A stretch of DNA of 64,000 bases from a virus. Under the pieces are notes generated by a model. The model was given only the letters and a program-made list of their open reading frames with translations, was not told the DNA's origin and ran no database searches. The stretch is taken from the IMG/VR virus record IMGVR_UViG_3300020045_007300, positions 30,893 through 94,892 of that record. The stretch is one strand, 5' to 3'. This document shows, piece by piece, positions 8,886 through 50,832 of the stretch; position 1 is the stretch's first letter, and the number at the start of each line of letters is the position of its first letter. The position numbers were made by a program, and so were the translations under genes.

Positions 8886-8968
8886 TGGTGGATAGGGCAT
8901 CGAACCCGAAAGACGGAAACCTACCGTTTGCCACCAAACTTTTTAGGTTGTTTTGAATAGGTATCAAA
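8886..8968 (+). promoter_or_regulatory. Structured leader (three-way junction with anti-SD loop), family A copy 1; TATAAT at 8872-8877 overlaps the capsid stop
   Basis: tggtgg/ccacca closing stem; loop aaccta complementary to downstream taggtt and taggta. Confidence 0.65.
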
Positions 8969-9457
8969 ATGTTGACACAAGAAAAGTTAAAAGAAGTTTT
9001 ACATTATAATGAAGAAACTGGTTATTTTACTTGGCTAATATCTAACTCAAATAGGGTTAAAATTGGCAGCAAGGCTGGCTCTAAAATGGCTAATGGTTAC
9101 ATGGAAATTCAAATTTTTAGCGAACGATTTACATTGCATAGACTGGCTTGGTTATATGTGAATGGTAAAATGCCAGACAATCATATAGACCACATTAATG
9201 GTGTTCGTGATGATAACAGAATATGTAATTTAAGACCCGTTAGTCGTGAATTGAATATGCAAAACATGAGAGAGCCAACAATAAGAAATGCACTAGGATT
9301 GCTTGGTGTTCATCTTGATAAAAGCCGAAACAAGTTCATTGCACAGATAATGTACAACGGAAAACATAAGCATCTTGGTCGATTTAATACCAAAGAAGAA
9401 GCGCATCAAGCATACTTAATTGCTAAGCGTGAATTTCATTCAACCTGTACAATTTAA
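8969..9457 (+). CDS. HNH homing endonuclease with AP2 domain
   Basis: HRLAW..IDHINGVRDDNRICNLR; C-terminal GV....KFIAQI..NGKHKHLGRF. Confidence 0.93.
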   Translation: MLTQEKLKEVLHYNEETGYFTWLISNSNRVKIGSKAGSKMANGYMEIQIFSERFTLHRLAWLYVNGKMPDNHIDHINGVRDDNRICNLRPVSRELNMQNMREPTIRNALGLLGVHLDKSRNKFIAQIMYNGKHKHLGRFNTKEEAHQAYLIAKREFHSTCTI

Positions 9458-9471
9458 TTTCAGGAAATATA

Positions 9472-9954
9472 ATGGCTACATATACACTTACAAAAACACC
9501 AACAACCGTTGCTCCTTTTTATCCTCATGCACAAGTTGTCAATGAAAGCCCCGTTAAAACAAGATCAGCGGTATTTGACGGCGCAAAAGCAGCGGCATTT
9601 AAAGGTTCAGCGATTGCCACAGCCGATGTGTTTGAATTGTTGACAATTCCAGCAGGTTCATTCGTGTTGTCAGTAACACATCAAGTTACCACAGCAGAAG
9701 GCGGAGCTTGTACTTTTGACATCGGTGACGGCACTGATGACAATGGTTATGTTGTTGCGGCAACTAACGGCAATGGCAATTCAACATCAACAAATTCAAA
9801 TTCGTTTAACGGTACAACAACACCCGCTTTTGGTGTTGGTAAATACTATTCAGCGGCTGATACAATTGACTTGACTCTGGTATCTGGCACAGCGGCAGCG
9901 GTTATCGTTAAGATTTCCGTAACTTATGTTGCAGTTAGTCCGTTAGCGGCTTAA
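9472..9954 (+). CDS. Capsid decoration / minor head protein
   Basis: A/T/G-rich beta protein with IPAG and DTID motifs, following capsid. Confidence 0.7.
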   Translation: MATYTLTKTPTTVAPFYPHAQVVNESPVKTRSAVFDGAKAAAFKGSAIATADVFELLTIPAGSFVLSVTHQVTTAEGGACTFDIGDGTDDNGYVVAATNGNGNSTSTNSNSFNGTTTPAFGVGKYYSAADTIDLTLVSGTAAAVIVKISVTYVAVSPLAA

Positions 9955-10004
9955 TTGATTTGGCTACTCGTCACTGGGTAGCCATTCTTTACAGGATTTA
10001 AAAA

Positions 10005-10583
10005 ATGTCACAATTTGAAGATTTAATTGTCGGTAAATTGACAATGACGGGCGGCGGCTTTATCGGCACACAAGCGGCTATTGCTGGCTTGTCGGTAGTT
10101 CATAAGCAAGTCGGTTTCTTACGTCAATCCGTGTTTACACTGGACAACGTAGCTCAGACTGTTGTAAATGGCACTGAATACCAAGGCACTAAACTCTATG
10201 ACTTTCCCGAAGGTCGTGTATTGGTACTGGGTGTTACCGCAAGATTGCAACAAAAAACAACTAGCGCACTGGCTGGCACACTGAACGCAAGTTCTACAGG
10301 TGCGGTATCATTAGGCACTGTAACGGCTTCGGCAACTACTTTAGCCACCACAATGGTTGATTTATTGCCATCTACTGCATTTACATCGTCAGCAACGGTA
10401 AACGTGGCAGGTACGGCAGTTGGTGCAGCATTAGCAGCTTCCGCGCAATTCGACGGCACAGCTACCGCAAAATCAATGTTCTTAAATAGCGCATTTGCGA
10501 CTACTACAGATGTTGATGGCGATGCAACTATTACATGGAGCGGTACTATTATCGTAACCCATATTGATTTAGGTGATTACTAA
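10005..10583 (+). CDS. Virion structural protein
   Basis: A/T/G-rich composition, virion operon context. Confidence 0.65.
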   Translation: MSQFEDLIVGKLTMTGGGFIGTQAAIAGLSVVHKQVGFLRQSVFTLDNVAQTVVNGTEYQGTKLYDFPEGRVLVLGVTARLQQKTTSALAGTLNASSTGAVSLGTVTASATTLATTMVDLLPSTAFTSSATVNVAGTAVGAALAASAQFDGTATAKSMFLNSAFATTTDVDGDATITWSGTIIVTHIDLGDY

Positions 10584-10858
10584 TGCTTGATATTAGCTCA
10601 TTAGACAAAGATGCTTTGGCTGATTATGCGCGTACCGTATTCAAAACTGAATTAGATATGCGTAAAAATCTTGAGTCTTTGCGTAAAGACGTAAAGGCTA
10701 TGCAGGATAAACCAGCAAAGCCAGATGAATTGCCATTAAAAAAGGCTTCTCATATCAAAAATAAAGCCAATGGTCGTGTATTTCCTTACACTCAGTTGTT
10801 AGTCGCCCATTTAGGCGATAACGCAATTCCATGTGATGAAAACGGCGAACCAGCATGA
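10583..10858 (+). CDS. Hypothetical head-module protein
   Basis: Translationally coupled at both ends. Confidence 0.65.
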   Translation: MLDISSLDKDALADYARTVFKTELDMRKNLESLRKDVKAMQDKPAKPDELPLKKASHIKNKANGRVFPYTQLLVAHLGDNAIPCDENGEPA

Positions 10859-11499
10859 GCATCGCAAGCCTAATTCAAGACGTTAGAGAGGACATAATTG
10901 ATGACGTTGGTCTTCAAAAAAGACTTTCTGATAGTCAATTGACTAGGTTTGCAAATGAAGCCATCAAGGAGGCGTGTATACGCGCCCCTTTGTTGGTGAC
11001 AACAAAAACTTTCAAGGTTATTGCAGGTAAATCTGAATATAAACTTGATGAATTTACCAGACAAATAATAGATGTTAAGTTCAGCCTGTCGCCACACCCG
11101 CTAAGACAAGAAACCGATGATGGATTATCACTCACTTACGGTAGCGATTGGAAACTACGCGCAGCACCACCGACACACTACACCCGATTAAACAGAGTAT
11201 TGCGGATATATCCAATTCCTGTTGTTGACGACGTGCTGTCAGTGAAAATGTCGCGCATTCCCGATGATGATTTTGATTTAGACGAAGACATAGACCCGTC
11301 TTATTACGACTCATTCAAGTATTACGTTGCTTACAAAGCATTTTCTCAACGTGATAATGATAATTACGATCCCGTTAAGGCATCAAGTTTTCTTGAGTTG
11401 TTTAACTCGATGTTTGGCACTAAGCATTCTGCAAAATATGACACTGTTAATTTTAATACACCCATGTATGCGACGGTAACGTCAGGCAGGATGTGTTGA
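10855..11499 (+). CDS. Head-tail adaptor protein
   Basis: LSDSQLTRFANEA, LRIYPIP and YYVAYKAF motifs typical of podoviral adaptors. Confidence 0.8.
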   Translation: MSIASLIQDVREDIIDDVGLQKRLSDSQLTRFANEAIKEACIRAPLLVTTKTFKVIAGKSEYKLDEFTRQIIDVKFSLSPHPLRQETDDGLSLTYGSDWKLRAAPPTHYTRLNRVLRIYPIPVVDDVLSVKMSRIPDDDFDLDEDIDPSYYDSFKYYVAYKAFSQRDNDNYDPVKASSFLELFNSMFGTKHSAKYDTVNFNTPMYATVTSGRMC

Positions 11500-12671
11500 A
11501 GCAGCCAACTACTCAAGTATTAGCCTTCCTAGGCTTACACAACAAAGCCCAGTCACGCCGTCAACCAAAAGGTGAAGGCGGCACACTGATTAGCATGGCA
11601 GATTGCCAGAACGTACAGCTGGATGACGAAGGCGGTGTAAGTAGTCGTGATGGCAATACGCTTGTAATGCCAACAACAGGCATTACAGCCGCGTTTAACA
11701 TTGAGAGTTACCAGTATGGCTACATTGTCGATAATGGCGTATTAAAGCGCGTCAATGGCGATTTAAGTACCGTAGACCTTGGAACTGTATCAACACAACA
11801 TACAGAATGGCTAGAAATCGGTACACGAGTGTTTATGTCCACTGGCTACTTGATTGATAATAACGTGTTAATGCCTTGGGTAACTCCAATACCAGTACAG
11901 CCTGACGTTATTATTGGCAATGGTTATTTAGCCGCTGGTCAATATCAATTAACAATCACATCAATATCACAAGACGGTAGAGAATCAGGTAGTTGTGAGG
12001 TTATTCCGTTAAATCTTCCTGATAACAGCGGGTTGGTATTAATTGGCACTGATAATTGCATGGTTTACATGACCGCATTAAACGGATCTGTGCTATATGA
12101 GATTGGTATCGGTGTTACTGTTATTGACAGTATTATTCAATTGACCGAAAAATCAATAAATGTTGATAGGCTAATAACCCAGTCAGTACCGCCAGTGGTT
12201 GATAAAATCGCGTACTACAATGAGTGTTTACACTGTTCTGTTTACGATAAATCAACCAACACCAGTTCTATATTCTACTCAAAATCATTCATGTTTAACG
12301 TATTCGACTGGTTTGAAGACGTTATCAGTGATATTGCTGGAGAAGTGCGCGGAATACTGGGTATACCAGAGGGTTTATTAATCGGTACAGACAGGGAAAT
12401 ACTACTGTATAATATCGACAGTGGAATAATTAAACTTGCTGGTTATGGTGTTGCAAGTGGTAAACCTATTAAACGAAACCGTGACGGACAGATATTTATT
12501 CAGTCATTGCGTGGAGTTTGTACGATGCCATTTAAAAATTTGACAGGTGATAAATACACCGCACCATTAGGCGGCGAATGTTCCACAGCAATGCTTGATT
12601 CATCGGGTACTGAGTTATTTGTAACGATTACTGATGGATTAGGAAAAACAGAAGACAGCGTTGACTTCTAA
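11493..12671 (+). CDS. Tail (nozzle/tubular) protein
   Basis: NV.LD..G...R.G N-terminus, beta-rich, follows adaptor. Confidence 0.7.
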   Translation: MLKQPTTQVLAFLGLHNKAQSRRQPKGEGGTLISMADCQNVQLDDEGGVSSRDGNTLVMPTTGITAAFNIESYQYGYIVDNGVLKRVNGDLSTVDLGTVSTQHTEWLEIGTRVFMSTGYLIDNNVLMPWVTPIPVQPDVIIGNGYLAAGQYQLTITSISQDGRESGSCEVIPLNLPDNSGLVLIGTDNCMVYMTALNGSVLYEIGIGVTVIDSIIQLTEKSINVDRLITQSVPPVVDKIAYYNECLHCSVYDKSTNTSSIFYSKSFMFNVFDWFEDVISDIAGEVRGILGIPEGLLIGTDREILLYNIDSGIIKLAGYGVASGKPIKRNRDGQIFIQSLRGVCTMPFKNLTGDKYTAPLGGECSTAMLDSSGTELFVTITDGLGKTEDSVDF

Positions 12672-12690
12672 GTTAATGTATAATGATTAT

Positions 12691-12775
12691 GTGGGCAGGT
12701 GTTGCAACACTGAGCTGATTATCCTAAGCTCAGCCCACGCCATTTTGGATAGATTATTTTTGGATTTGAAATAAA
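12691..12775 (+). promoter_or_regulatory. Family A structured leader copy 2 (TATAAT at 12679)
   Basis: gtggg/cccac stem; loop atcc complementary to two downstream ggat. Confidence 0.6.
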
Positions 12776-13498
12776 ATGAACGAATTAATTAAAAATACAG
12801 AGCAAACTATGTCCTTAAAAGACATAACAGACCTGCTTGAAACCCGCCATAATGATGCAATGAAAGTTGTTGAAAAAATGGCTGAAAGCCTTGAATTTGG
12901 TAGCGTTACGAAAATATCGTATCGCACAACACAAGGTAATGAGTATGATACTTACGCATTAGATAAGCGTCAGTCTGTTGCGGTATCAGCAAAGTTAAAC
13001 ACCGCATTGTTAATGCGTGTTATTGACAGATGGCAAGAGCTTGAGTCAGCACAGCCAAAAGTGCCAACTAATTTCATTGAAGCGATGCAATTAGCAACCG
13101 CTACTTTGATTGAAAATCAAGCATTACAGTTGAAAATTGACTATGATAAGCCAAAAGTTGAATTTGCCGAAAAAGTACGCGCTTTGGACGGCTCAATATC
13201 AGTTGGCGACTTTGCAAAGCTCATTGGCACAGGTCAAAACCGTTTATTTAAACGACTTCGTGACGATGGATATTTAATGGTTAATAATCATCCAATGCAA
13301 TCCGCTGTCGAACGAAAATTACTTGTTCAGATTGAGCAAACACCGTTCACTGATTCAAATGGTAAGTCACATCCAGCATTTCAAACAAGAATCACTGGTA
13401 CTGGTCAAGTTTATTTTGAAAAACGGTATCGCGTAGCTGTTAGTGAATCAGTGAAAGATAAAAAAGACTTAACTATTTTAGTAAGTAAAACAAGCTAA
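12776..13498 (+). CDS. Rha-like / ANT (KilAC) antirepressor
   Basis: TMS..DI..L...RH, RVIDRWQELE, PTNFIEA, KPKVEFA..V, GQNRLFKRLR, TRITGTGQ. Confidence 0.88.
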   Translation: MNELIKNTEQTMSLKDITDLLETRHNDAMKVVEKMAESLEFGSVTKISYRTTQGNEYDTYALDKRQSVAVSAKLNTALLMRVIDRWQELESAQPKVPTNFIEAMQLATATLIENQALQLKIDYDKPKVEFAEKVRALDGSISVGDFAKLIGTGQNRLFKRLRDDGYLMVNNHPMQSAVERKLLVQIEQTPFTDSNGKSHPAFQTRITGTGQVYFEKRYRVAVSESVKDKKDLTILVSKTS

Positions 13499-13606
13499 GA
13501 AATAGCTTTACAACAGGCGTAGGTTACGCCCATATCCCAAGCAGCCATAATGGCGTAGACGGAAAATTTAAACAACTAACGTCGTGATGACGTAAGGACA
13601 AATAAA

Positions 13607-14125
13607 ATGGCAAACGATTCAACAGGTTTTTTAAAAATGTTGCTGGGTAAATCAACACTAGTAACAGGCGCTAGTTCAGTAGGAGGTGTATTTGATGCCA
13701 GTGTGATTGATGTCTACGATGGCACACGCCCTGTAGATGCCGATGATGCTATTACCACGCAAACCCTATTGTGCAGAATTACTCTAAACGGCGGTGCATT
13801 TGTCGAAGGAACTGCTACTAATGGTCTTGTTTTTGGAACTCCTACGGTAGATGGAACAGGGGCTTCTAAGATTGGTCATTTATCCAAACCTGCGCTAACT
13901 TTATGGGCTGGAACAGCGGGAACTTTATCTGGTACAAAGACTGCCACATGGGCAAGATGGCGTGGAAATGCAGTTGATTCTGGTGGAGCTTCAACAACTT
14001 TGCCAAGAAAAGATTTAACTGTATCTGACGCAACAGGCACAGGCGAATTAAAACTAAGTACGGTTACATTCGTTACTGGCACGGAAGCACAGGTTGCATC
14101 ATTTAGTTACAACCAGGGCGTTTAG
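13607..14125 (+). CDS. Virion structural protein
   Basis: I..YDGTRP.DAD...TLL and TATWAR motifs; GNRA hairpin and SD upstream. Confidence 0.75.
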   Translation: MANDSTGFLKMLLGKSTLVTGASSVGGVFDASVIDVYDGTRPVDADDAITTQTLLCRITLNGGAFVEGTATNGLVFGTPTVDGTGASKIGHLSKPALTLWAGTAGTLSGTKTATWARWRGNAVDSGGASTTLPRKDLTVSDATGTGELKLSTVTFVTGTEAQVASFSYNQGV

Positions 14126-18992: not shown

Positions 18993-20644
18993 TGTTACCC
19001 CCTAAGCGTCAAAACCTATTCCCACCATTCGCCACTACGTTTGACGGCGACCCTGCTGAGTGTTCCAAGCACTTAGGCAGGGCAAGGGGTATGCTTAGCT
19101 TAATGTGCCGCAGTATGCCGCCTGTCAAGTCACGCACAGAAACTACGGCTGATGGTGTTGAGATACGGGTTACTACCAATCCTCATCATGTTTATATTAA
19201 GTCTGGTAGTACGTTATTTTGCACGTCATTTAATGAAGGCGATTTAGGTACGCAGATATATAAAAAACCATACCCTCCAGTAACAAGAGATGGTCTTATT
19301 TTAGATAGTGACAATCCCAATAAACTTGTCCTACCATCACCGACCTACAGCGCACGAGCTAATTATTGGGCAAATACTAGAGAAAATGCCACAGTTAGCT
19401 GGGATTATGTTGAGTATTTAGATATATTTTACCCTGTTGGTCACGCCAGCAGACTAAGAAAATACGGAAAAATAGCGGTAAATGGTATCGAAACTGACTT
19501 GCTATGGGGTAAGTTTTTAGAACCGTTGGTGTGCGCATTAATCGATAAAGATGCTGATGATTTGCCTGTTCAGCGGATTGTGATTATCTATGTTGATAGA
19601 CTTAATTATGCGGGGACGGGCAATAATAGATATATTGCGGTGTACGATTATCAGATAGACACAAGCGTTTCTTTAACGGAGATTTCAAAAACTAATTTTA
19701 ATGTGCTTGGCTACAGTACAAACACATTAATAGGATTTTTTGGTGATGCTAAACGGCTGGCTATATACAGCACTGTTGATAGGATTTATTACCCATCAGA
19801 TTACCCACTGGGAATTACAAAGCACGTTCCGACAATAAATGTTATTGATTTTAATAGCGCGTTTGTTATGGTCGTAAATGACGAAATTATTTACGAAGAA
19901 TCGCCAGAGGTAAGCCTTGGCTATAACTATGTATCAAGCGGCGAAACGACAACATTAGTCATCCCGTTTGAGCATATATCCAGCGCATTTATAGATGTAA
20001 GAGGCGAGTATATTTCTTTTTCTGCATCTAAGACTATTATAAAAATAACAATATTGGCTGCGGAAGTATCGTGGGAAGGCGGCATCTATCGTCCATATAA
20101 TAGTGATTCATCGACAGTGGAACATCACCTAGTATCGTGGTCAAAAAAAGACACTTTACAGAGATTACTTTTAAAAGCCACGTCAAGCAGTCACTCTGGA
20201 ACAACCACAGAGTCAGGCGGTCGGTTATTAAAGACGGGTATTTATTTAGAAAAATACATTTACTGTTCCCTGTTCTTAAAAAAGCAAAATGAATGTATTT
20301 ATGCTGAACATACGCAGTCAGGGACTAGCTCATCGGTAGAAGGTACAAAGCCAGCTGGTGATTGGGGAATAATCTCTAGCGAGTCAACGCAACGCAATCA
20401 AGTAGAAATAATATCAAAAAATCTTGGCGAATTATACACAAGTGACTTAACGCTTGGCGGTGATGGTTGGGTGGGGGATTATTCGTACACTAAAAGTACG
20501 CTGGTAGTATCAATATACGCATTTGATTATGATACAGAGGGCAATGAAACCGATAAATCATTTACGCTTGTTTCAAATATGAAAAGTAAGTACAAAATAA
20601 TACCTACGGAAGCTAAAAACATATCACTGACTAAATTTCCGTAA
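18992..20644 (+). CDS. Putative virion/tail-associated protein
   Basis: Coupled to previous gene; beta-rich variable body. Confidence 0.6.
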   Translation: MLPPKRQNLFPPFATTFDGDPAECSKHLGRARGMLSLMCRSMPPVKSRTETTADGVEIRVTTNPHHVYIKSGSTLFCTSFNEGDLGTQIYKKPYPPVTRDGLILDSDNPNKLVLPSPTYSARANYWANTRENATVSWDYVEYLDIFYPVGHASRLRKYGKIAVNGIETDLLWGKFLEPLVCALIDKDADDLPVQRIVIIYVDRLNYAGTGNNRYIAVYDYQIDTSVSLTEISKTNFNVLGYSTNTLIGFFGDAKRLAIYSTVDRIYYPSDYPLGITKHVPTINVIDFNSAFVMVVNDEIIYEESPEVSLGYNYVSSGETTTLVIPFEHISSAFIDVRGEYISFSASKTIIKITILAAEVSWEGGIYRPYNSDSSTVEHHLVSWSKKDTLQRLLLKATSSSHSGTTTESGGRLLKTGIYLEKYIYCSLFLKKQNECIYAEHTQSGTSSSVEGTKPAGDWGIISSESTQRNQVEIISKNLGELYTSDLTLGGDGWVGDYSYTKSTLVVSIYAFDYDTEGNETDKSFTLVSNMKSKYKIIPTEAKNISLTKFP

Positions 20645-28310: not shown

Positions 28311-28383
28311 GCCCATAAAAACGTGATACAATACCTGAACACTGTTTAATTACAACCACGCTGTGAAGCGCAAGGACATCACA

Positions 28384-30135: not shown

Positions 30136-33100
30136 TGAGTTCTTTTAATGATTTTCTCGACAAACAATATGCGGAAAAACCAGAGGCGGCAAGCACCACT
30201 AAGGTAAAGTCATTTAATGATTTCCTAGATGAGCAGTACAAGGGAGTAGAGCCAGAAAAACCAAAAGCCAGCGGTGGCGTAGTAGCCGATATAGGGAAAG
30301 CCATAGTTCGCGGCGTGGCGAAAGCCCCCGATGCAATAGCAGGGTTAGCGCATACTGCTTTATCAGATAGTGCCATAGTAGGTGATGCAGCACTGGGCAA
30401 CATGGATTCTTCCAGAATATCACCAGCACAAGCAGCTATTGATTATGGCTTAGGAACGGCAAGGGATAATACCACCCGTGCGTTTGCCGATAAAGTAGCA
30501 AAGGAGTTGCCGTATTCACAAGAAACACTGGATGCTTCTGACAGGCAGCAATCCGATAAAGCCGAGCGACTAAAGCAGATTGACATTGATACGCCTAAAA
30601 TTAAGTCTGATGGCTTAATTCAAGATTTAAACGCTAACAATGCGTGGCGTACTGCCAAGCAAATAGGCGCGGGGGCAATTGCTGGATTAAGCGAACCACG
30701 CAGCTTAATCCCCAGTGTTATTGAATCAATTCCTGAATTTGTCGCATTAGCGGCAGGTTCAAAAGGTGCGGGCATTGCTAAGGGCGCAGGTGGATTGGGC
30801 GATGCTTCTGTATTGGCAGAAAAGGCTAGGTTGGCGGGGGCTGGTGAATCGGTATCTGCTAAAGAAATGGCTAAACACACTGCGAAAGTAGATGGTTTGG
30901 CTACAAAATTAGATAATGCAAAATTAGCAGGTGATACCGCGCTTGAAGCGGATATTAGCGCAAGAATAAGGAAAGCTAACGAATGGACAGCTAAAAAAGA
31001 ACTAGCTAATAATGCAGAAAAAGCAGCTACCAGACAAGATTTAGCGATTGCTGGGTTAGGTAACTTTACCCTTGAGGGGCAAGGTGCGTCCGATAGCGCA
31101 AGACAACAGTTTAATAACTTACCCGATGATGAATTAAGAAAAAATCCTGAGTTCGTTAATTTAGAAAATCAATACGGTTTTGAGCAAGCCAAAAAGATTG
31201 CCAGTGAAGCAACGGGTAATAAAGCCTATGCACCAGCGGCGGCACTTGGTTCTGTAGCATCACTTGGAACAGGTGGCGGCTTAGAAGGTGCGTTAATGCG
31301 TGGTTTCAAAGACACTGCCAAAGACGGAATTGTTAAAGCAGGTCTAAAAGGCGGATTTAAAGAGGGTTCAGAGGAATTTATTCAAGGCGGATCAGGTCAA
31401 TTTGCAGAGAACACAGCATTAAACCCTTACACTGGCGTTGACTCAATGGAAGGCGTAGCGGCTGCCGCAGGTGAAGGCGCAGCTATGGGATTCTTGACAG
31501 GCGGCGGCGGAAGTGTCGTGGGTGCAGCTTATGATAAATATGCTCAGTCTAAAGCGCAGGCTGATATTTTAAAAAAACAGGCATTATCTCAAACTGGATT
31601 ATCAGCAGCAGCTACGCAAGGACAAGCAGCATCAGCTCAAGCTGATGCTGATACACACCTAGCTAATGCACAAGGCTTGCAAGACGGCACAATAGCACCT
31701 GTTCAACCTGAACCAGTAGCCGAAGCTCCAAGTGCATTACCAAAAATAACACCTGACGTACACACGCATATTAGTAATGTACTGGATAGTTCATATCAAG
31801 ATTATGTGAAAAAAGGCGACAAGGCGGCACTTAATAAAGGAGCAATTCAATCGGCAGCAAATGATTTGGGTGTTAGTTACGATCCATCAAAGGAATCAAC
31901 AGCCGATATTTTAGTAAAATCCAGAAAAGCACTGCAAAACTACAATATTGCCAATATCGACCCTGTAGCAATTGAACACGCACAAGATACAATTTCCAAG
32001 ATTAACGAAAAATCAGCGCAAGGATTGCCACCGACTAATGTAGATAACTACAATCTATCCATTGCCGCTGAGAAATTAGGTACAAAACCAGATTTAAACG
32101 CACTCCAATCAACCATTGATAAGCACCTTGAACTAAATGCAAAACCAGCACCAGAAAACCCTGTTAGCCCTACAGCAACAAATCCACTCGCAGACGGAAG
32201 CACTGAGTCGAGCTTACAGCCAGATTCAAATGCTGGAGTTACAAGTGAAGCAAAGCCAGCACCAGTTGGAAAAGCTGATACTGCAAAGCCAATCACGCCA
32301 AAATGGATAGAAAGGCAAGCGGATTCTGATGTTATTAAAAATCCAAATAATTTTGGAAACTTGTCGTTTAAAACCACGAAAGAAGCAAATGATTTTATTG
32401 CTACACACGGATTAAAAAATCATTCACCAGCTAAAGATGGTTATGGCGGTTATGAAATTCACAGTAAAAAGTTTGCCGAAGCCAATAAGCAAAAGCAAGA
32501 CGCTGATATTCCAGACGCATTGAAGCCAAGCGGTGAATATCACTCAGCGATACCTTCATTGCTTAATGATTTGGAAAAAGGTGGCGGAATTGTTGTTGAT
32601 AGTAATAATCGCCGCAGTCAATCTGTTAATCCAACTTGGTTTAAAGATGGATTTATTCTTGATGGGAACACAACGCCTGAAAAAGTTACAACCATTACGG
32701 ACGCTATCCAAAAGTACGCCGACATTAAGGATGGAAAAAGAAAGGATGATTTAACAGGAAAAGACCATCGTATCCTGCAAAAACTTACCGATATTCTTAC
32801 AGAAGATGAACGCGCAAACAGTGTTGAATCCGAAGACATCCGCAGCGATGAAGTTAAATCAGCTCATAAATTTATTGATGAATATGAAAATGGCGATTAC
32901 GATCAAGAGCAATCAATAGGTCAAGACCTGTTGCATGCAAGAGCGACAGATAATAAAATCAATCCAGAAGATTATCGTAATTCTACTGGAATTTATGATA
33001 ACTCAGAGATTTACAAAGAACTTAAACGTAAAACAGGCTACAACACAAACAATGCAACAGATACACAACCTAATACAGCACAACCTGAATCACCGCGAAC

Positions 33101-37283: not shown

Positions 37284-37314
37284 TTAATTAAACGCCGTTT
37301 AATGGTATAATTAA

Positions 37315-37399
37315 GTGTGGCTAGGTTATCGAGACCGAAAACGTAATCCAGTACGACTGCCACACACCTATCTGGAATAATTTAACTTGGATTTAAATA
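37315..37399 (+). promoter_or_regulatory. Family A structured leader copy 3 (TATAAT at 37306)
   Basis: gtgtgg/ccacac stem; loop aatccag complementary to ctgga and tggatt. Confidence 0.65.
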
Positions 37400-38044
37400 A
37401 TGAAAACTCTAATTGAAACACTTAACAACCCTACCGAAGATGGACTTTATTCACTTAAAGCATTAGCCAAAGCAAGCGGAAAATGGGATATAAAAAAGCC
37501 AAGCCAGTTTTTAAGACTGCAATCTACAATTGATGAAATTAAATTTTTGTCAAGTGAAGAATTTGCACCACGGGCAATAATGCGGTCTGAGCGGTATAAT
37601 ACATCAGGAGGTGACACGTTTGTTTGCCGTGATTTAGTCTATTCTTATGCTCAATGGATAAGTCCTGCATTTAAGTTCTTGGTAATTAGAACTTTTGACC
37701 AGTTAGCAAACGCCACCACTTCGCAAGAAGTCATTGACTTAAAGTTCAAGCTCGATAACGCACTTCAACAAGACCTATTCACAAAAGCACAACAACCACG
37801 CGACAAAAACTGCTTACAGGTTTTAATGAATGTTTCGCCATTTCAAGTTGAACATTTCTTTACCGAACTTGAAAGTATCGGCGAGGTGAAAAGTAGATTA
37901 GTTCCACAACCACCAAAACGGATATTTGAAGCGACAGCGGAATCAAAATACATCATTGGTAAAAAAGGCGATACACTGTTATTTGATGAATCGGTTTCTG
38001 AATTATTCCCTGCTCAACAAGATTGGACGGAATGTCAGACATAG
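37400..38044 (+). CDS. KilA-N domain protein
   Basis: YSL..L.KASG...KPSQFLRLQST...GDTFVCRDLVYSYAQWISPAF...VIRTFD. Confidence 0.9.
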   Translation: MKTLIETLNNPTEDGLYSLKALAKASGKWDIKKPSQFLRLQSTIDEIKFLSSEEFAPRAIMRSERYNTSGGDTFVCRDLVYSYAQWISPAFKFLVIRTFDQLANATTSQEVIDLKFKLDNALQQDLFTKAQQPRDKNCLQVLMNVSPFQVEHFFTELESIGEVKSRLVPQPPKRIFEATAESKYIIGKKGDTLLFDESVSELFPAQQDWTECQT

Positions 38045-40879: not shown

Positions 40880-41069
40880 GTTCAATAACCTTTTGCGCAT
40901 TATCTGGAGTCGCTTTAGTCGCAGCAATTTCAACTAACCACGAATTAATCACCCCGTTAGCCAAGTTGCTCACTACCTTAGCCTGATTGATTGACACTGT
41001 GCCATTTTGTACGCCTTCAATTTCAGCTAAAAGCCGTTCGCGTAATGCTGTCATATCAGGGATATTCAT
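40851..41069 (-). CDS. Small phage protein
   Basis: LRERL...G.V....AK...NLA..VINS motif; coupled to neighbours. Confidence 0.65.
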   Translation of the reverse strand: MNIPDMTALRERLLAEIEGVQNGTVSINQAKVVSNLANGVINSWLVEIAATKATPDNAQKVIEHDYIDGEAL

Positions 41070-41503
41070 ACTTTAATCTCTCTAAATTCTTCGACATCCG
41101 CAATTCTACCCGCGGCATAAGCCTTGTCTTTGGCAGTAACCACACTGGCAATACTACCATCAAGGTTTACTCTGTTTTCGCTGTCAATAACACCTTTGTG
41201 ATAGGACGGTCTTGAGGTGTACCAATAAATAGCATTTCTTATCCGCTTTCTTGAAAAACCTGTTTCAGCATCGAATAATTGCTTATGGATGCCGTAAGCC
41301 AATGGTAATTTGTCTTCTTTTGCACCAAAAAACGCAAGAGGGAATAGTTTTTTTAGTTTTCTGATAGTTCCAGCGTTAGTGACTTTTTTTGCCTTGGCAG
41401 GTGATTCAATAACGGGTATCACTTCCACAGTTTTAACTACTGGAGGAATAACCACTTTTGGTTTCAGTGATAAAATCGGTCTGTTGCTGTTTGGTGTTGT
41501 CAT
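41066..41503 (-). CDS. proQ: ProQ/FinO-domain RNA chaperone (probable start 41503)
   Basis: LFPLAF...PLAYGIHKQL....SRKRIRNAI.WYTSRPSY......RVNLDG....V; SD AGGAA. Confidence 0.88.
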   Translation of the reverse strand: MTTPNSNRPILSLKPKVVIPPVVKTVEVIPVIESPAKAKKVTNAGTIRKLKKLFPLAFFGAKEDKLPLAYGIHKQLFDAETGFSRKRIRNAIYWYTSRPSYHKGVIDSENRVNLDGSIASVVTAKDKAYAAGRIADVEEFREIKV

Positions 41504-41543
41504 TTTGTAATTCCTAGGTTGATGGTTGTTTTTTTGTGAGTGA

Positions 41544-42245
41544 TTATCTAAAATCGGTATCATCCCAAGCCCCTTTCCCGATATTGCAGTCGGAGCAAAG
41601 GACTTGCAGGTTATCAAGGCATAATTCAAGCTCTGGATAACGTGAACGTGGTTTAATATGGTCAACGTGAATTTGCACCCCATTACCTGCTTTAGCCCCG
41701 CAACACTGACACAATACACCATTGTTTTTTAATGCAAGATAGCGCAGTTGTTTCCATGCAGTTGAATTATAAAAATCCTTGTATTCGGTCTTGCCAAGTA
41801 ATGGGTGTGAGTATTTAGGTAGGTTTGTTTTAGGAGCAACAGTCTTTACAATTAAGGATTCTGGATGTCTAAAGCTATAACTTGTTGTGCTTTTTTTGTA
41901 CGGAGCTATGCCAAAGATTAGTGGTTTTTCGCTAAGATATTTCGATATAGCATCTTTTGGAGTCAATCCACTCCATCCAAAATGACAAATTAACTTTTCA
42001 CCAACAGCTTTTTTACCTACATTACCAGCCATTCCTAACTTGTGTGCCAGCTTACACAAAGACCCGTTAGTAATCTTTTTTATAGTCCTAATACTTCCCA
42101 AGTCACCAGTAAAAACCCATTTCATTATTGGTTGAAAATCAGGCTGGCAATTAATAAACCAAATACCATTTTTCTTATCTTTTTTACAACCCAATTCTAT
42201 TGCTTGTTGCAATTCACAATCTGGTATTTTTAGCCATATTTTCAT
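41544..42245 (-). CDS. HNH endonuclease
   Basis: FYNS.AW..LRY..L, CQCCG, HVDHIKP...LDNLQVLC.DCNIGK. Confidence 0.92.
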   Translation of the reverse strand: MKIWLKIPDCELQQAIELGCKKDKKNGIWFINCQPDFQPIMKWVFTGDLGSIRTIKKITNGSLCKLAHKLGMAGNVGKKAVGEKLICHFGWSGLTPKDAISKYLSEKPLIFGIAPYKKSTTSYSFRHPESLIVKTVAPKTNLPKYSHPLLGKTEYKDFYNSTAWKQLRYLALKNNGVLCQCCGAKAGNGVQIHVDHIKPRSRYPELELCLDNLQVLCSDCNIGKGAWDDTDFR

Positions 42246-42925: not shown

Positions 42926-43507
42926 CTATAACCCTTTAAGATGACTCTCATATTGCGCCGTTCCAGAAAAGTTAATCGTCTTAAACCACTCTATTTTTTC
43001 ATCATCACTCATTCTAACTGAGTGCGGCATGGATATTTCATGAGAGACAATGTTATACCCATTTATAAGTCTTGATAAATCACATGGTAATTCTGAGTAA
43101 AGAAAATCAACGTCATCTATGTTCACGGAAAATTTACCACTAAGAAAGTCAATTATAGTCATAATCCGTTGTTTACCATCAATCACTTCATACTTAAAAA
43201 AGTGAGGTAATTCAGTTAGTCCTTCTTGTTGAAATTTCTTCCATTCCTCATTTGTGAATGGACAAGTATTTCGGAGGATAGATACACTGCCTATGCTAAT
43301 TCCCTTTAGTATTGAGTAAATAAGCTCTTGTTTTTGATGGTGCGACCAAATAAAATTACGTTGCAGGTTTTTTCCTCGTGATGGTAAAAAGACATTAAAG
43401 TCAATTTCATTTTTCAATGAATAACCTAAAAAATCCAGTGTACTTTCCTTGTAATCGGATAGGCGATTAAGTAATTCTCTGTGCGAGAATATTTCTGATG
43501 CTTTCAT
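42926..43507 (-). CDS. DUF262 (ParB/GmrS-like) domain protein
   Basis: LQRNFIWS, LIYSILKGI.IG, EVIDGKQR..TI, F..IN.SG. Confidence 0.88.
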   Translation of the reverse strand: MKASEIFSHRELLNRLSDYKESTLDFLGYSLKNEIDFNVFLPSRGKNLQRNFIWSHHQKQELIYSILKGISIGSVSILRNTCPFTNEEWKKFQQEGLTELPHFFKYEVIDGKQRIMTIIDFLSGKFSVNIDDVDFLYSELPCDLSRLINGYNIVSHEISMPHSVRMSDDEKIEWFKTINFSGTAQYESHLKGL

Positions 43508-43597
43508 TTTAAACCCTTAATTTAAAATAGACCTTGAATGATAGCGTGGGCAGTTTGTCAAGGTAACAAATCTTCAACCGCTAAGTCTATCCCACAC
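43508..43597 (-). promoter_or_regulatory. Family A structured leader copy 4
   Basis: gtgtggg/cccacgc stem; loop accttg complementary to caaggt and taaggg. Confidence 0.6.
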
Positions 43598-43674
43598 TGT
43601 TATTGTAACACACAAAACCATGTTACAATAAACCCATAAACCCAAACTATCGCCGCAAGGTGAAAGGAATACTC

Positions 43675-46600: not shown

Positions 46601-48780
46601 CCAGACTCAACAAGAATCTTGGCTTTGTCGGTATCAATAAAGCTAGGATTATGGTGTCTAGCATGAGAGATATTGTCAGTAATGACGAGATTTTCAATTC
46701 TATTATCGAGTTTATTCCCATTGATATGATGAATATGCTCATCAACGGAAAGCTTTCTGCCAATGGACATCTCTACGATATGTCTATGCTCATAGATAGT
46801 CTTCCCGTTAATACTGATAACTCTATATCCTCTTTTTCCGACATACCCATTAGGATTGCTATGAATGTATTTAATTCTGCAATCTCTGGAGCAGCAAACA
46901 ACCCCCTTGAGTTTAGTAAATCTAGCGGGATTGACATGAAAGATATTTCCGCATTGAACGCAAGGCTTGCTGGAGTTAATTCTGTCGTTGGCACGAAGGA
47001 AAGTAGCGGAGCAAGACTGACTGCAAAAAACATCAGTGGATTTTATGCTGCTAGGCTGTCTAATTACATCGACACCGCAATTAGCGCATTGGAAAACAAT
47101 GGATTTATTAGTAAAGATACCTCTGCACGAATTAGAACAAAAGAACAATCCAGATTTACAAACTCTAATCTGGGTGTTGGTTCTAGTGAGAATGGTATTG
47201 CAGGTGGTACAATTGACAATAGGCATGATGTTACTCCGAATAGTAATGTTATGTCAGGTGATAAACCTGTTGAAGCAGACTTATCACCGACTATTATATC
47301 AAAAAAAGATGTTATGCACGAGGTATTAGCTTATTTAGTTGAGTACCATCCTAAATTATCAATCAATCAAAAATTCCTAGCATGGTTTAAATCAAAGTTG
47401 CGCGCATTGGGCAAAGCATTACCTAAGTTGGAACAGTTGAAGTGGGTGCGTTGGGCAAATTCGCTAAATGAGCAAGATTTAGTGTCTGTGGCAAGTAGTG
47501 CATTACGAAACGCACCCAATGATCTGATGTTTGATAATGTGGGGCGTGGTGATGAAGTGGTTAAGTTGTCGGAACAGCAAGCACGGTTTTACTCAGCTCT
47601 ACGAAAAGCGTTTTTATTAGCACCTGAAAAAGTATTTACCAACGGCGCAGCAGTAAAGGCTTGGATTAATGGTAATGCTGGTAAATTTGAGGTCAAGAAA
47701 GATGAAATTTACTGGTCTGGATTAAATGAATTTTTAGATATGCAGGGCAAGGTTAGCCGTGATGATGTGGTTCGGTTCTTGGATACTAATGGCGTGAAAG
47801 TTGATACCATTGAATTAAACGGAATTCCTGTTTATCCAAAAGGTTCATACATGGATGATGACGGCGATGTAAGACAACAGGAAGAATGGAGGGTAACTAA
47901 TGAAGGTGACGAATTATCAGATGATGAACTGGACGATTTATTATCTGAAATGACGGACGTATCTGGCAATTATGTTGAAGGAGAGGGCGGTAATGCTATT
48001 AATTCAGATGATTGGCTAAAGCAGGAAGGTGGAGAAAATTACAGGGAATTAATTGTTACTGCACCTCAAGCTGAATCATATAACGAAAATGATCGTATGC
48101 ACTATGGAGAAATTAGCGATGGTCAAGCTATTGTATGGTCAAGGCTTACTGATAGAGAAACTAATAATGGTGAAAAGATACTGTTTGTTGAAGAAATACA
48201 ATCACAAAGAGCGGATGATTATCGAGCTAAATATAAAGGAAAGCCATTAATAGAGAATAATTATAGGGATGAAAAGTATTTGGATGATAGTGAAAAAATA
48301 CCAGAAGCCCCTTTTATCTCGTCATCAAGTAAAACCCCATCAACAGCTTATATAACACTTATATTAAAAAAGATAGTTTCTAGTGCGATTGATAACAATC
48401 AGTCTATTGTTGCTTGGGCTACTGCTGAACAAATGCCAAGTAGTGAGAATGTGGAGTCATGGGGAAATGCAATGTATGGAAACCAATATGGATTGGATGA
48501 AAAAGAAAATCCAGCATTAATTACCTTGGTGGCACGGGAAATAGCGCGTAAATTTGGTGGTAAAATCGGCACGGTTAATTTGAGTACAGGAACACAACCA
48601 GCATTGATTATCACGCCTGAGATGCGTCAGAAAGTGATTAATGAGGGTATGCCCTTGTTTAGCAAAGCACAGCCAAAAGATAACGACTTGCAATCAAAAA
48701 TCACCGACGCAATTGACGCAGAATGGTTGAATATCGTCAATGAAATGAAGCGTCAGGGAGTGATCAAAATACGGTGTTAG
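43675..48780 (+). CDS. Giant polyvalent virion protein B (probable start 43675, MSNC...): two zincin metallopeptidase-like domains and a C-terminal EEIQS-motif domain
   Basis: HELIH at 44464, HEIGVH at 46237, LFVEEIQS; SD AAGGA plus GNRA hairpin; Cys only at residue 4 and the last residue. Confidence 0.88.
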   Translation: MSNCIYTFNDPLNGDKQITIEGLPALKAYLFKGGAEALLGNVAGELGIPVFGVIKQGVAKENSKSEIGKKPKLGNNVSIEIRSFSRFNSDEDKNEYVKSLINNGFNSDKLQKEVDNTAKASEYFSKGGDAGYAEATNYAATVGRDLLNRLIFAETQSAPSKYTQELKNTPQKLSPLHTAINNGNTTAVLEHIKANSATPLHQILADKLTGILPDGINITISDTLKNNRGESGIMNYDYASKTVSVNLSAIAKLKENTTEKAFIHELIHAVTGEKINAIMSKNESTLTKDEKIARTQLKLIANLIAKHVEKNSITGDLKKISALTSENLRELITYGLTEPAFQKMLADIKIGKDKTAWTQFVHAVAKLLGIELNEEQETALSALLMVGDSLLGDALANMENNDAIEPSRTDILAKIKLANKEMLSLVNRLKNGESAKSLNYSEKLKEFEAEKDRLAILYDNSIDNEQKNYPNGITQELIDEVKTHLSDKVHNGWNGDFLPKVRVTKGLIYSITLDEEKTEQIYQILKNEQDTLESIDQERSIFKNIVPKKRQNVWEEDKPYRESGASHFDISGTQRALMSGRAKDKFDKEVAKGTDNKRSLATGWYDKLIRAYENEEFSLETKGLSLDARNYIARHIADLKAEGEDSATNESQPANTEESAQLVAPKNKISKSARQNLYVALLRAGFKERYGSATPIGNLLINGESYSDTNILKNSDLKQNFTIQTIKDGKVGRIELTPHQLVKAAKSAGNPVFDKVDGIDSIKPSKSTTPTNAHTKTTLTSALRTVMDREYGSGWTQRLLATGKFEVMTRAEAQALEPTANLDNVQGYYSAKHDKTILIAEQIAKGKDLKGLMLHEIGVHAQNLNLEQKEFNEILNQLERMRKFSKPVQAAYIRALNSFSLSSMPIDSVPQTSIRNAYSSSDISNAKTAINKLINNIEIIIGSGVRRGISTNNVKNPSNRAWVAIKNLSNLSVLETRLNKNLGFVGINKARIMVSSMRDIVSNDEIFNSIIEFIPIDMMNMLINGKLSANGHLYDMSMLIDSLPVNTDNSISSFSDIPIRIAMNVFNSAISGAANNPLEFSKSSGIDMKDISALNARLAGVNSVVGTKESSGARLTAKNISGFYAARLSNYIDTAISALENNGFISKDTSARIRTKEQSRFTNSNLGVGSSENGIAGGTIDNRHDVTPNSNVMSGDKPVEADLSPTIISKKDVMHEVLAYLVEYHPKLSINQKFLAWFKSKLRALGKALPKLEQLKWVRWANSLNEQDLVSVASSALRNAPNDLMFDNVGRGDEVVKLSEQQARFYSALRKAFLLAPEKVFTNGAAVKAWINGNAGKFEVKKDEIYWSGLNEFLDMQGKVSRDDVVRFLDTNGVKVDTIELNGIPVYPKGSYMDDDGDVRQQEEWRVTNEGDELSDDELDDLLSEMTDVSGNYVEGEGGNAINSDDWLKQEGGENYRELIVTAPQAESYNENDRMHYGEISDGQAIVWSRLTDRETNNGEKILFVEEIQSQRADDYRAKYKGKPLIENNYRDEKYLDDSEKIPEAPFISSSSKTPSTAYITLILKKIVSSAIDNNQSIVAWATAEQMPSSENVESWGNAMYGNQYGLDEKENPALITLVAREIARKFGGKIGTVNLSTGTQPALIITPEMRQKVINEGMPLFSKAQPKDNDLQSKITDAIDAEWLNIVNEMKRQGVIKIRC
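46360..47226 (-). CDS. Zn-finger-repeat HNH endonuclease with C-terminal HTHs, nested antisense in giant B
   Basis: Repeated CxxC/FCS..C, YEHRHIVE..IGRKL..EHIHHINGNKLDNRIENL; own GGAG SD and TGnTATAAT at about 47293-47301. Confidence 0.9.
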   Translation of the reverse strand: MPIVNCTTCNTILTRTNTQIRVCKSGLFFCSNSCRGIFTNKSIVFQCANCGVDVIRQPSSIKSTDVFCSQSCSATFLRANDRINSSKPCVQCGNIFHVNPARFTKLKGVVCCSRDCRIKYIHSNPNGYVGKRGYRVISINGKTIYEHRHIVEMSIGRKLSVDEHIHHINGNKLDNRIENLVITDNISHARHHNPSFIDTDKAKILVESGLKYTEIGKILNCHPSSVRRVLDVIGAYTPAYTRTNYDFNVIYQLIDSGLSIRDVATRIGVSYACLWNAIDRHRAKTKRV

Positions 48781-48785
48781 GAGAT

Positions 48786-48813
48786 AACCCGCCTTAATCG
48801 GGCGGGTGTTTTT
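48786..48813. terminator. Intrinsic terminator after giant B
   Basis: acccgcc/ggcgggt plus T-run. Confidence 0.8.
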
Positions 48814-48822
48814 CTTGACTAT

Positions 48823-50727
48823 TTAGGATAAATCATCCAGTGAAAACACAATCCCATAGCAATACACATCATCATCTTCCATTACCTTAAACTCAGCATG
48901 AGTAATATCGGTTTTGTATGACCATGAGCAATTACGGTCTTTGTCATCCCAGATAGCATCGACTTTGCTGCATTTATTTTTTTCTGATATTGAGTATTTG
49001 CACTCGCATTCACATTCTTCAAAAAGACCGATATTGCTGATAAATACAGTCGCACCCTCCCACGCACTAACCTCATCACGAATAGCACCGCGAAACTCTA
49101 TTAAGTCATCGCTAGAGCCGAATACGATAACCATGTTATTCTCCTTTGCCATTTCTATTATTTCTTGACTAGGGTCATCTGGGTATTCCAGACCGTCCAG
49201 CATTTCTGCTACCTTGTTAATCATTTTTTACCACCTTGATAGTGTGCGTTAGTAGTGGGCATTTAGGGTGCCTAGCGTCTCTCATTGAATATGTTGAACA
49301 AAACAACTGCTTATTTAATACACACCCATCTCCCTCTTGGTCAAAATCATATTGTAAAAAAATACAATCATGACATCCAGACGATACTATTACTTTTTCT
49401 GGTAATTCACTCATCGCCATACTCCTCACTAGCCGAACATTCAACACACCACCCAGCTTCCAATTCATCACCGCACACGGTGCAATAACATTCCATACAC
49501 AGCCTATCTTCACTGACTTGATGGCATTTGTCGCAGGTATATTGTTCTTTAGCAGGTAAATCAATCAATGGACAATCGCTGTGCGGAATAGTAAAACCAT
49601 AGTCACTTTCTCTAAGAACCTCAATAGGTTTCGACCAGTGGCACACTGACACGCCAGTAATACCAATGCTCGCAAAAACGCATTGACCTTCTTTATTTGC
49701 ACAGGTACGGCGCGTACCATCTTTAGTAAAGAATACTGGTATTTGTAGCGAAACGTAATTAATCATGATTGCACCAATAAATTAGCAGAATCAATAAAAT
49801 CACCACAAACATAATCACGCTTTGTGCTTATGTGAGAAGCAACGTCAACCAAAGAGCAATTTTCTATTCCAGAAAAAGCCAATGACTCTGCACTACTAAC
49901 TGGGGCGCGTCTTGTGCAGTCTCCAACCAGAGAATTATGCCACCGCCACCAGTCACAACCAGCGCAACATGGTTTTCCGTGTTTTACATAAAACTTATCG
50001 ACAAAATCTTGCGTACATTTATTAATCATGATTGCACCAACCCCTTGTTTTCAATTCTAGCCAAGTCATTAATGTGGTCAAAACCAATCCGTTGAGCAGT
50101 TGCGGTAATGTAATATTCGACCTCAACTTTAGCATCATGGGTCGCTGCATCCAATGCTTCTTCTGCTTGCTGCACAGTAAACGCAACATTTGACGGCATA
50201 TTGTCCACAGTGCATTTTAACGAATGATGCAATTGTTGCAGTTGTTTCTTCGTTGGCTTTCCAGCTATCAATTCCTCAAGTTCGGCAACTTGGCTTTTCA
50301 TCCTTTCAATAGCTTTTGAACAGCTATCTTTAATTTCTTGCCGATGAGTTTGATGTTTTGTTTCTATTTTCTCTATGTACGGAGCTAATAGGCGCGATCC
50401 ATTTTCATCGCGGTAAACCTCAAGCGTAACAGGTGTACCACTGCCATTACCATTGCTGGTTATAAATCTGGAAAATTGAGCATGACTCATTGAAAATTCA
50501 CACACGGTTTCAGTGCCATGATTCCAATCATTACTTAAATGACGGTGATGCTCCGCTTGCTCAATCTTTATTGAGATACATTGATTATGCCCAATATCAG
50601 AACCGAATAACGAAGTGTTACCACCGTTACGAGTAGTCATTGTGATTAATCCGTATGCAGGATGGGTAAATACTTGGTTGTCTGGAGTTGATTTTTCAGA
50701 CGGTGTTGGTTTTTGTGAGTTTTTCAT
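48823..50727 (-). other. Minus-strand operon of hypothetical phage genes (48823-49224, 49217-~49414, 49407-49766, 49763-50029, 50026-50727)
   Basis: ATGA-coupled ORFs, several Cys-rich. Confidence 0.7.
49758..50040. repeat. 20-bp perfect direct repeat ATTAATCATGATTGCACCAA (49758-49777 and 50021-50040)
   Basis: Direct observation; brackets ORF 49763-50029. Confidence 0.85.
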
Positions 50728-50832
50728 TTTGAAATCCTTGAACGTGGATAAAGTGGTTTGAACAAATTAGAACTACGGAAACGCTTGTTCAAGGCGCGTT
50801 AGGTCGGGTAATTAGTCTGACCATATCCGTAG
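50728..50832 (-). promoter_or_regulatory. Family A-like structured leader copy 5
   Basis: ctacgga/tccgtag stem; loop ccttgaacaa complementary to ttgttcaa and gttcaagg. Confidence 0.55.

Follow-up and report, generated by a model that had tools for sequence, protein, structure and literature searches.

Three-way-junction leaders related to the int-alpA RNA family precede phage nuclease and regulator genes and may govern their translation in cis

We analysed a 64,000-nucleotide (nt) window, bases 30893-94892 of the 94.9-kb IMG/VR phage record IMGVR_UViG_3300020045_007300 (a lake or wastewater phage; 89% complete by CheckV), in which five unrelated genes are each preceded by an RNA leader with a three-way junction. 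The RNA family is already catalogued in Rfam as int-alpA (RF02996), and the five leaders are added members of it, three by sequence and two by architecture only. In this window and about 90 relatives, int-alpA mainly stands as a leader close to the promoter, in front of free-standing genes for homing endonucleases and antirepressor-like proteins. From the sequence evidence set out below we suggest, with a probability of roughly 0.55, that this leader is a cis-acting translational governor. Megablast of the window region against cultured phages found no close cultured relative, and the capsid protein reaches at most 37% identity in tblastn.

At all five sites a -10 box is followed 3-8 nt later by a closing stem, which encloses two hairpins (HP1 and HP2). 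The loop of the second hairpin (L2) is complementary to a proximal and a distal downstream target (T1 and T2), and T2 coincides with the Shine-Dalgarno sequence (SD). This is the arrangement that an earlier note on this DNA had described. The start positions given there (8886, 12691, 37315, and 43597 and 50832 on the minus strand) are the first bases of the closing stems, each loop/target pair it listed is found in the sequence, and its gene identities are correct (HNH_3+AP2, Rha+ANT, KilA-N, GmrSD_N/DUF262 and one unknown protein of 233 aa). Its list of parts lacks a third hairpin (HP3), which is present in all five copies. The copies, labelled s1 to s5, are composed as follows.

8872-8971, plus strand: s1, leader of the HNH_3+AP2 gene 8969-9457 (start codon 8969). 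-10 box TATAAT 8872-8877; closing stem 8886-8891/8931-8936; HP1 8895-8907; HP2 8913-8927; L2 AAACCUA 8917-8923; T1 UAGGUU 8944-8949; HP3 8949-8971 with T2 UAGGU 8958-8962 in its loop.
12679-12778, plus strand: s2, leader of the Rha+ANT gene 12776-13498. -10 box 12679-12684; closing stem 12691-12696/12733-12738; HP1 12699-12710; HP2 12711-12732; L2 GAUUAUCCUA 12717-12726; T1 GGAUAG 12747-12752; HP3 12754-12774 with T2 GGAU in its loop (12761-12767).
37306-37402, plus strand: s3, leader of the KilA-N gene 37400-38044. -10 box 37306-37311 with TG extension; closing stem 37315-37321/37359-37365; HP1 37324-37336; HP2 37342-37355; L2 AAUCCAGU 37345-37352; T1 CUGGA 37372-37376; HP3 37380-37398 with T2 UGGAUU 37388-37393 in its loop.
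43505-43607, minus strand: s4, leader of the GmrSD_N/DUF262 gene 42926-43507. -10 box TACAAT 43607-43602; closing stem 43597-43591/43550-43544; HP1 43587-43576; HP2 43570-43554; L2 UACCUUG 43565-43559; T1 UCAAGGU 43537-43531; HP3 43529-43505 with T2 UAAGG(G) 43519-43514 in its loop.
50725-50843, minus strand: s5, leader of the open reading frame (ORF) 50026-50727, function unknown. -10-like box TATTAT 50843-50838; closing stem 50832-50826/50779-50773; HP1 50822-50802; HP2 50798-50782; L2 CCUUGAACAA 50794-50785; T1 UUGUUCAA 50765-50758; HP3 50749-50734; T2 GUUCAAGG 50743-50736.

The three-way junction is the minimum free energy fold in RNAfold for s1, s2 (z -2.59), s3 and s5. For s4 the closing stem is present in both the minimum free energy and the centroid structures, and the centroid also contains HP2. 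Loop/target complementarity was assessed for each copy from the longest complementary runs against shuffled tails, as the chance of both runs together. It amounts to 6+5 nt for s1 (P 0.0014), 6+5 nt for s3 (P 0.0002), 6+4 nt for s4 (P 0.0018) and 8+8 nt for s5 (P < 0.0002). It had been claimed that loop and targets change together in each copy. This stands in so far as each loop finds its best tail in its own copy in a loop-by-tail matrix, with the exception of the s3 loop, for which the s2 tail is an equally good match (6/5). We note that the s3 loop (37345-37352) thereby matches the s2 targets (12745-12767) better than the loop of s2 itself does (5+4), which may be cross-regulation or chance.

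The family statistics rest on pattern scans of IMG/VR; loci in other records carry L-numbers, and the whole genome record of this phage is called G000. The class A core, TAGG..ATCGA..CCGAAA, is common to s1 and s3 and was used as a search pattern; it gave 55 loci, with the full architecture in about 40. The class B core, TAGnCTTAGCGGnTGAA, was found through a Rha/ANT homologue in another phage and gave at least 118 loci in the same kind of scan. From these, 89 non-redundant leaders, each with a downstream SD and ORF, were used for the statistics. A MAFFT alignment of 20 class A leaders (A9), which was not fitted to any structure, served as the structure test. In this alignment 90.4% of the cells pair, the corresponding values being 62% after shuffling and about 38% for slid controls, and both-sided changes occur in 12 of the 14 pairs, which confirms a real and covarying RNA family. 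A joint alignment of both classes (A10) put the two core types out of register, and no third model was built from it.

The complementarity between L2 and its targets is specific to each leader. Across the 89 leaders the two best runs of complementarity between HP2 and its own tail sum to 11.26 nt, compared with 8.00 ± 0.16 nt for permuted tails. Each site is significant by itself (5.85 vs 3.82 for T1 and 5.36 vs 4.00 for T2), and the covariation of T2 persists when the comparison is restricted to the 68 leaders with a T1 unlike an SD. Hence, L2 is not merely a generic anti-SD loop. The loop-target pairing, which the earlier note had read from five copies, is real, and both sites covary with L2. 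A series of loci illustrates it at a single position. L2 is ..CAUUAC in L025 and L171, where T1 is GUAAUGA and T2 is UAAUGA, and ..CGUUAC in L107, where the targets are GUAACGA and UAACGA. In L184, L2 is ..CGUUAC and T2 is UAACGA, while T1 is still GUAAUGA, leaving a G-U pair. The series thus represents three-way covariation at one position. Enrichment of G-U pairs beside the shorter target was also tried and was uninformative (GU share 0.12 vs 0.14).

The loop and target words fall into few recurring types, for example ..UUCAUUAC.., ..CUUCAAUCA.. and ..CUUGAACAA.., which differ by few covarying bases (recurring-type loci L025, L107, L171, L184; L028, L144, L145, L168, L174; and L031, L043, L116, L163, L201). 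These types are common to both core classes and to unrelated downstream genes. The word set of s5 (CUUGAACAA with T1 and T2 containing GUUCAA) recurs behind canonical class A and class B cores, for example at the last five of these loci.

The geometry is also conserved among the 89 leaders. T1 begins 8 nt (interquartile range 7-9) past the closing stem, T2 follows T1 by 15 nt (13-16), and a median of 8 nt (7-11) separates the end of T2 from the start codon. The geometry of s2 is that of the family, with T1 8 nt past the stem, T2 15 nt further and a third hairpin. In s5 the T1-to-T2 spacing (22 nt) and the gap between T1 and HP3 (8 nt) are both above the norm.

HP3 adjoins the start codon in 22/27 and 64/89 leaders, compared with 21.6% of 774 control gene starts on the same contigs (Mann-Whitney P 2.5e-10). 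It consists mostly of A-U pairs, is predicted to be weak (0 to -3.5 kcal/mol), and its 3' strand reaches up to the start codon or almost so. In 56 of the 64 cases T2 and the HP3 loop overlap, and only 0-2 nt separate the end of T1 from the 5' strand of HP3. This modifies the proposal of alternative pseudoknots, as the SD-side target is a hairpin loop and not a free strand. With T2 located in the loop of HP3, L2 and T2 would form a kissing complex between two loops, and a second pseudoknot of the simple kind would not arise.

The -10 boxes of the window copies are TATAAT in s1-s3, TACAAT in s4 and TATTAT in s5, with a TG extension in s1, s3 and s4. The -10-like box of s5 adjoins, in divergent orientation, the plus-strand TGaTATAAT at 50837. 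In the family, a -10 box lies 2-10 nt (median 5) before the closing stem in 58/89 leaders against a background of 2.9%, so that the RNA would begin at the fold. Transcription is predicted to start at the closing stem or a base or two inside it. Among the class B matches listed, 62 of 78 copies have an SD and an ORF 20-75 nt downstream, which supports a leader rather than a free-standing RNA gene.

The relation to int-alpA is as follows. By a refuting condition that the earlier note had itself set, the motif belongs to an already described family: the Rfam scan, a check that it had also named, returned int-alpA. RF02996 matches s1 at 29.1 bits over the full model and s3 at 28.1 bits, also at full length (model positions 1-71, E 0.00023 in a local search). 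Both scores are below the gathering cut-off of 35.8 bits, and s2, s4 and s5 have no match at E <= 10. The cut-off is passed by 6/20 class A and 2/14 class B loci (8/34 in total, 36.8-48.7 bits; the two class B leaders score 37.4 and 37.1 bits), with others just below. Two further models, R1 from the single sequence s1 and R2 from 20 class A leaders, find only s1 and s3 in the genome; with R2, s2 and s4 are undetected and s5 reaches 9.1 bits (E 6.4). The s4 leader is an exact match to the class B core TAGnCTTAGCGGnTGAA, and locus L190 has a tail nearly identical to that of s4 behind a canonical class B core. Judged by conserved sequence, s1, s3 and s4 are sub-threshold relatives inside int-alpA. 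The leaders s2 and s5 share only the architecture with it, and their homology is an argument from architecture, because neither R2 nor RF02996 detects them. A 51%-identical homologue of the Rha/ANT protein encoded behind s2, found in another phage (L102/L163), carries a class B int-alpA leader. No IMG/VR relatives were found for the genes behind s4 and s5, so there are no orthologous leaders for comparison.

The RF02996 consensus consists of the closing stem, UA, a G-initiated hairpin 1, CGAAAA, hairpin 2 with the loop AaaCCuUua, CU, the stem, a U-rich linker and AgGG. The corresponding junction bases are UAG, GAAAG and UUG in s1, UAG, GAAAA and CUG in s3, and UAG, GAAGA and CUG in s4. They are missing from s2 (AG, with no second junction segment, J2) and from s5 (UAU, UAA, UU). 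We take int-alpA to be one of the candidate motifs of Weinberg et al. 2017 (NAR 45:10811). The main text of PMC5737381 does not discuss int-alpA. A full-text literature search gave no function for it, the mentions being table listings or gene names.

Int-alpA aside, no Rfam family, riboswitch and ribozyme classes included, matches any of the five sites at E <= 10, and only tRNA passes a gathering threshold. The hammerhead core (CUGANGA ... GAAA ... UH) is absent from the junctions on inspection, other ribozymes and a tRNA-like fold were dropped on inspection of the sequence, and an intrinsic terminator was dropped given an inconsistent U-run. The 94.9-kb genome yielded no additional copies of the leader. 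Loose architecture descriptors run across it were unspecific (29 matches vs 18 in shuffles). A scan of genome contigs for the canonical int-alpA word returned mostly chance matches, and among the matches listed only L233 and L327 looked real. In L327 (a canonical copy on a bacterial contig, near 5287, minus strand) a GCGCU/AGCGC hairpin immediately precedes a GTG start and holds the SD-side target GAAGG in its loop, so the third hairpin is not confined to phage int-alpA copies.

The downstream genes are of two main kinds. Nucleases (HNH, GIY-YIG, NUMOD) follow at least 14 of 24 class A leaders and most of 58 class B leaders, the types being HNH_3, HNH, HNH_4, HNH_5, Endonuclease_7, GIY-YIG, T5orf172 and NUMOD. 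Rha, Bro-N, ANT and DUF1376 proteins form the second group, and one of the downstream proteins is a Dam. The gene set of the window is typical of the family. We agree with the earlier view of a portable module, as it brings a -10 box with it and occurs before genes that are unrelated to one another. The leader s5 does stand before ORF 50727 as described, but it appears to head four or five minus-strand ORFs (50727 to 48823) rather than a single gene.

That these genes are inserted is demonstrated for the first cassette only. The HNH cassette of s1 is absent from 10/10 related contigs. The two closest relatives, with 96-97% capsid identity, have 13 nt between the capsid gene and a homologue of 9472-9954, and the cassette exactly replaces this intergenic spacer. 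The s1 -10 box (8872-8877) spans the last codon and the stop of the capsid gene, which read gta taa t here and gtt taa in the relatives (L003 3755-3775). Expression of the head genes downstream probably depends on transcription through the cassette. In related phages the capsid gene is split by a group I intron-like insert (L009 5192-6185, L010 4116-5109, L011 10138-10442). The insert of L009 contains a 255-aa ORF with a LAGLIDADG-like start, that of L010 has the same size, and that of L011 is about 300 nt long and has no ORF. The capsid gene of this window is uninterrupted.

Some neighbouring elements are different. Two more HNH genes of the window (41544-42245 and 53173-53709) lack a three-way-junction leader; the latter begins 4 nt after a TGgTATTAT box, beside tRNA-Pro (53026-53099). 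A second recurrent type of leader occurs at 28327-28375 and 59593-59640 of the window and at 30384-30432 of G000. It is composed of TGnTAyAAT, an A/T-rich (ttaatta-like) segment, a short GNRA-type hairpin (CGCU-GUGA-AGCG, or GCGA) and an AAGG SD, and it stands before large virion-type ORFs. A 67-nt palindrome, UGGUGG ... CCACCA, at G000 20405-20471 (L015 4605-4671) gives a weak match to R1 on both strands and is probably a bidirectional terminator or hairpin, not a copy of the leader.

Dependence of the leaders on a ProQ protein of the phage had also been suggested. The window does contain a candidate gene:

41066-41722, minus strand: ProQ/FinO-domain gene (PF04352, 73.5-75.2 bits), candidate RNA chaperone.

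However, a ProQ/FinO domain is encoded in 0 of 40 further phage records with the motif, of which 18 are at least 90% complete. ProQ therefore cannot be a general requirement of the leader, and the dependence is unlikely as a general rule. We note that the ProQ ORF, a 218-aa frame with the domain in residues 119-212, overlaps the 3' end of the HNH ORF 41544-42245 by about 180 nt; the true start is probably internal to the frame.

We suggest the following mechanism of the governor acting in cis. Each leader is part of a self-contained cassette, with its own sigma-70-type -10 box before it and an add-on gene behind it. The gene products are a homing endonuclease, regulators of the Rha/ANT and KilA-N types, a nuclease-like DUF262 protein and one unknown protein. 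In the transcript, L2 may pair either with T1, which would be single-stranded about 8 nt past the junction, or with T2, which is about 15 nt further, in the HP3 loop, and overlaps the SD. The L2-T2 kissing complex would hide the ribosome-binding site (RBS). The L2-T1 pseudoknot would compete with it and leave the RBS exposed in the HP3 loop. Because T1 abuts HP3, the L2-T1 helix could stack on HP3. We infer that pairing controls translation, that it acts in cis and that the T1-paired state is the on state; the silencing of toxic or regulatory inserts, which the earlier note had proposed, is likewise putative. The balance of the two states would set a low, promoter-independent output, and such an output would suit nucleases and regulators whose genes lie within virion operons with heavy transcription. 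There is a precedent in T4-like phages, where structures that sequester the RBS control I-TevI, mobE and segB (PMC3014915). The predicted energies of the L2-T1 and L2-T2 duplexes are within about 1 kcal/mol of each other in most copies.

Several observations weigh against this mechanism. The T1 duplex is the stronger one in 51/79 leaders and in s1-s4, and the T2 duplex is predicted to be stronger in s5. With T1 usually stronger, the SD-blocking state may be a minority in cis, and simple repression becomes less obvious. Mere presentation of a loop does not account for the strong conservation of the junction bases (UAG, GAAA(A), CUG). Rfam types int-alpA as 'Gene; sRNA' and not as a cis element. 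In the window itself, the complementarity of s2 (5+4 nt, P 0.22) is at chance level, and the conserved int-alpA core is absent from s2 and s5. A query with bases 8000-13600 of the window returned no RNA sequencing runs with this phage, only DNA runs in which it has a small share.

The main rival is an antisense RNA. The leader could give rise to an RNA that also acts in trans, like C4 of P1 and P7, CI of P4 or CA of N15. Cleavage or termination in the pyrimidine-rich linker that precedes T1 would set the three-way junction free, and it would accumulate. Its free L2 would then bind T1 and T2 on newer transcripts, leading to dose-dependent shut-off and possibly to cross-talk between cassettes or co-infecting phages. 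Two targets per loop, with the SD-side one in a hairpin loop, are the usual layout of antisense kissing. Pairing with T2 also suits an RNA without its own T1 better, as T1 usually wins in cis. The five copies of this genome have different L2/target sets, and the L2/target types of the family are few and differ by few covarying bases; a comparable difference separates the C4 specificities of P1 and P7. In the Rfam consensus the closing stem is directly followed by a U-run, and Rfam types the family as an sRNA. Against this reading, the U-run is inconsistent in the phage copies (s3 and s4 have none) and most copies directly precede an ORF. Several of the downstream genes are Rha, ANT, KilA-N or Bro regulators, and C4 controls the antirepressor Ant of P1 (PMC8201110). 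However, the window has no match to the Rfam C4 family (RF01695) at E <= 10, and the equal fit of the s3 loop to the s2 tail speaks against strict orthogonality. Overall we regard an antisense RNA as unlikely. We consider it unlikely, too, that int-alpA leaders are a modular, reprogrammable kissing-loop riboregulator associated with selfish phage genes, whose 5' junction RNA also acts in trans. If this were true, each L2/T1/T2 specificity type would be an RNA-level dosage or immunity circuit, which might shut down cognate cassettes, be it within one genome (as the match of the s3 loop to the s2 targets would allow) or on a co-infecting one, and C4/CI-like logic would extend far beyond temperate P1 and P4, among homing endonuclease genes.

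The strong conservation of UAG, GAAA(A) and CUG, which are the most conserved bases across both core classes while the helices covary freely, could instead indicate a sensor. The junction might bind a small molecule or a protein (host Hfq, ProQ, S1 or a phage factor), or sense Mg2+ or temperature, and so choose between T1 and T2. Two nearly isoenergetic states, as predicted here, are expected of a switch, and this phage encodes a ProQ/FinO protein. However, no Rfam riboswitch class matches, the HP1 loops differ between the two core classes, and ProQ is absent from all 40 other motif-bearing phages. Moreover, in SD-sequestering riboswitches the pseudoknot bases usually contact the ligand, and here they vary freely; a sensor is thus rather improbable. 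A structural 5' cap would need no switching at all: a compact fold with a terminal triphosphate would shield the cassette mRNA against decay that depends on the 5' end, or keep upstream context away from its RBS. The fold does begin at the predicted transcription start, it is compact, and T1 abuts HP3, so that the helices could stack. This reading leaves the covariation of L2 with T2 at the SD unexplained, and we consider it very improbable. Finally, a short word that occurs three times (inverted as L2, direct as T1 and T2), in constant order and at the border of a mobile cassette, could be a DNA-level element, made up of protein-binding or recombination sites. The compensatory changes in the stems and the G-U intermediate in L184 argue against it, as do the fixed orientation to promoter and SD and the unrelated downstream proteins, for which no common DNA-binding specificity is expected; it is the least credible of the readings considered.

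If the leader governs translation in cis, as we favour, it would explain how nucleases sit harmlessly inside highly expressed virion operons. It would also provide a natural set of orthogonal loop/target pairs usable as translational controllers.

Compared with int-alpA as catalogued in RF02996, the leaders described here have the same closing stem and two hairpins, the junction bases (UAG/CGAAAA/CUG) are shared by s1, s3 and s4 in the forms given above, and the consensus L2 (CCuU) is complementary to the 3' AgGG of the model, which aligns with T1. The differences are that the window copies are below the cut-off or undetected, that L2 and its targets are highly variable here, and that the Rfam model ends at T1, without T2 and the third hairpin. 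The genes are phage homing-endonuclease and moron types, not int or alpA, from which the name originates.

Alternative pairings that keep the SD of a harmful gene unavailable are also found in type I toxin mRNAs (hok, and aapA1 of H. pylori). There, several anti-SD strands act on one SD in a processing-dependent manner; here one loop faces two targets. C4 of P1 and P7 and CI of P4 are structured RNAs encoded in a leader, with a loop complementary to duplicated targets, one of which is at the RBS. They control antirepressor-type genes, and their specificity shifts by covarying loop and target bases. The present leaders are similar in location, in the loop and duplicated targets including the RBS, in the presence of antirepressor-type genes and in the covarying specificity. 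However, C4 uses two loops, C4 and CI are excised by RNase P, and their targets flank the RNA gene, whereas int-alpA leaders have one loop and both targets downstream. The features of C4 were reportedly described by Citron and Schuster in 1990. C4 regulates ant (PMC8201110). No sequence or structure match to C4 (RF01695, E <= 10) was obtained with the leaders here.

The RBS hairpins of homing endonuclease genes in T4-like phages (I-TevI, I-TevII/III, Aeh1 mobE and T4 segB; PMC3014915) are similar in that RNA structure at the initiation region limits a selfish nuclease embedded in heavily transcribed phage genes. However, these are simple local hairpins, and in I-TevI a late promoter lies inside the structure, so that late transcripts escape. 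In int-alpA leaders the only recognisable -10 box is upstream of the whole fold, and the SD is located in the loop of HP3, not in a stem, where it would be contacted by a distant loop for which a decoy site competes.

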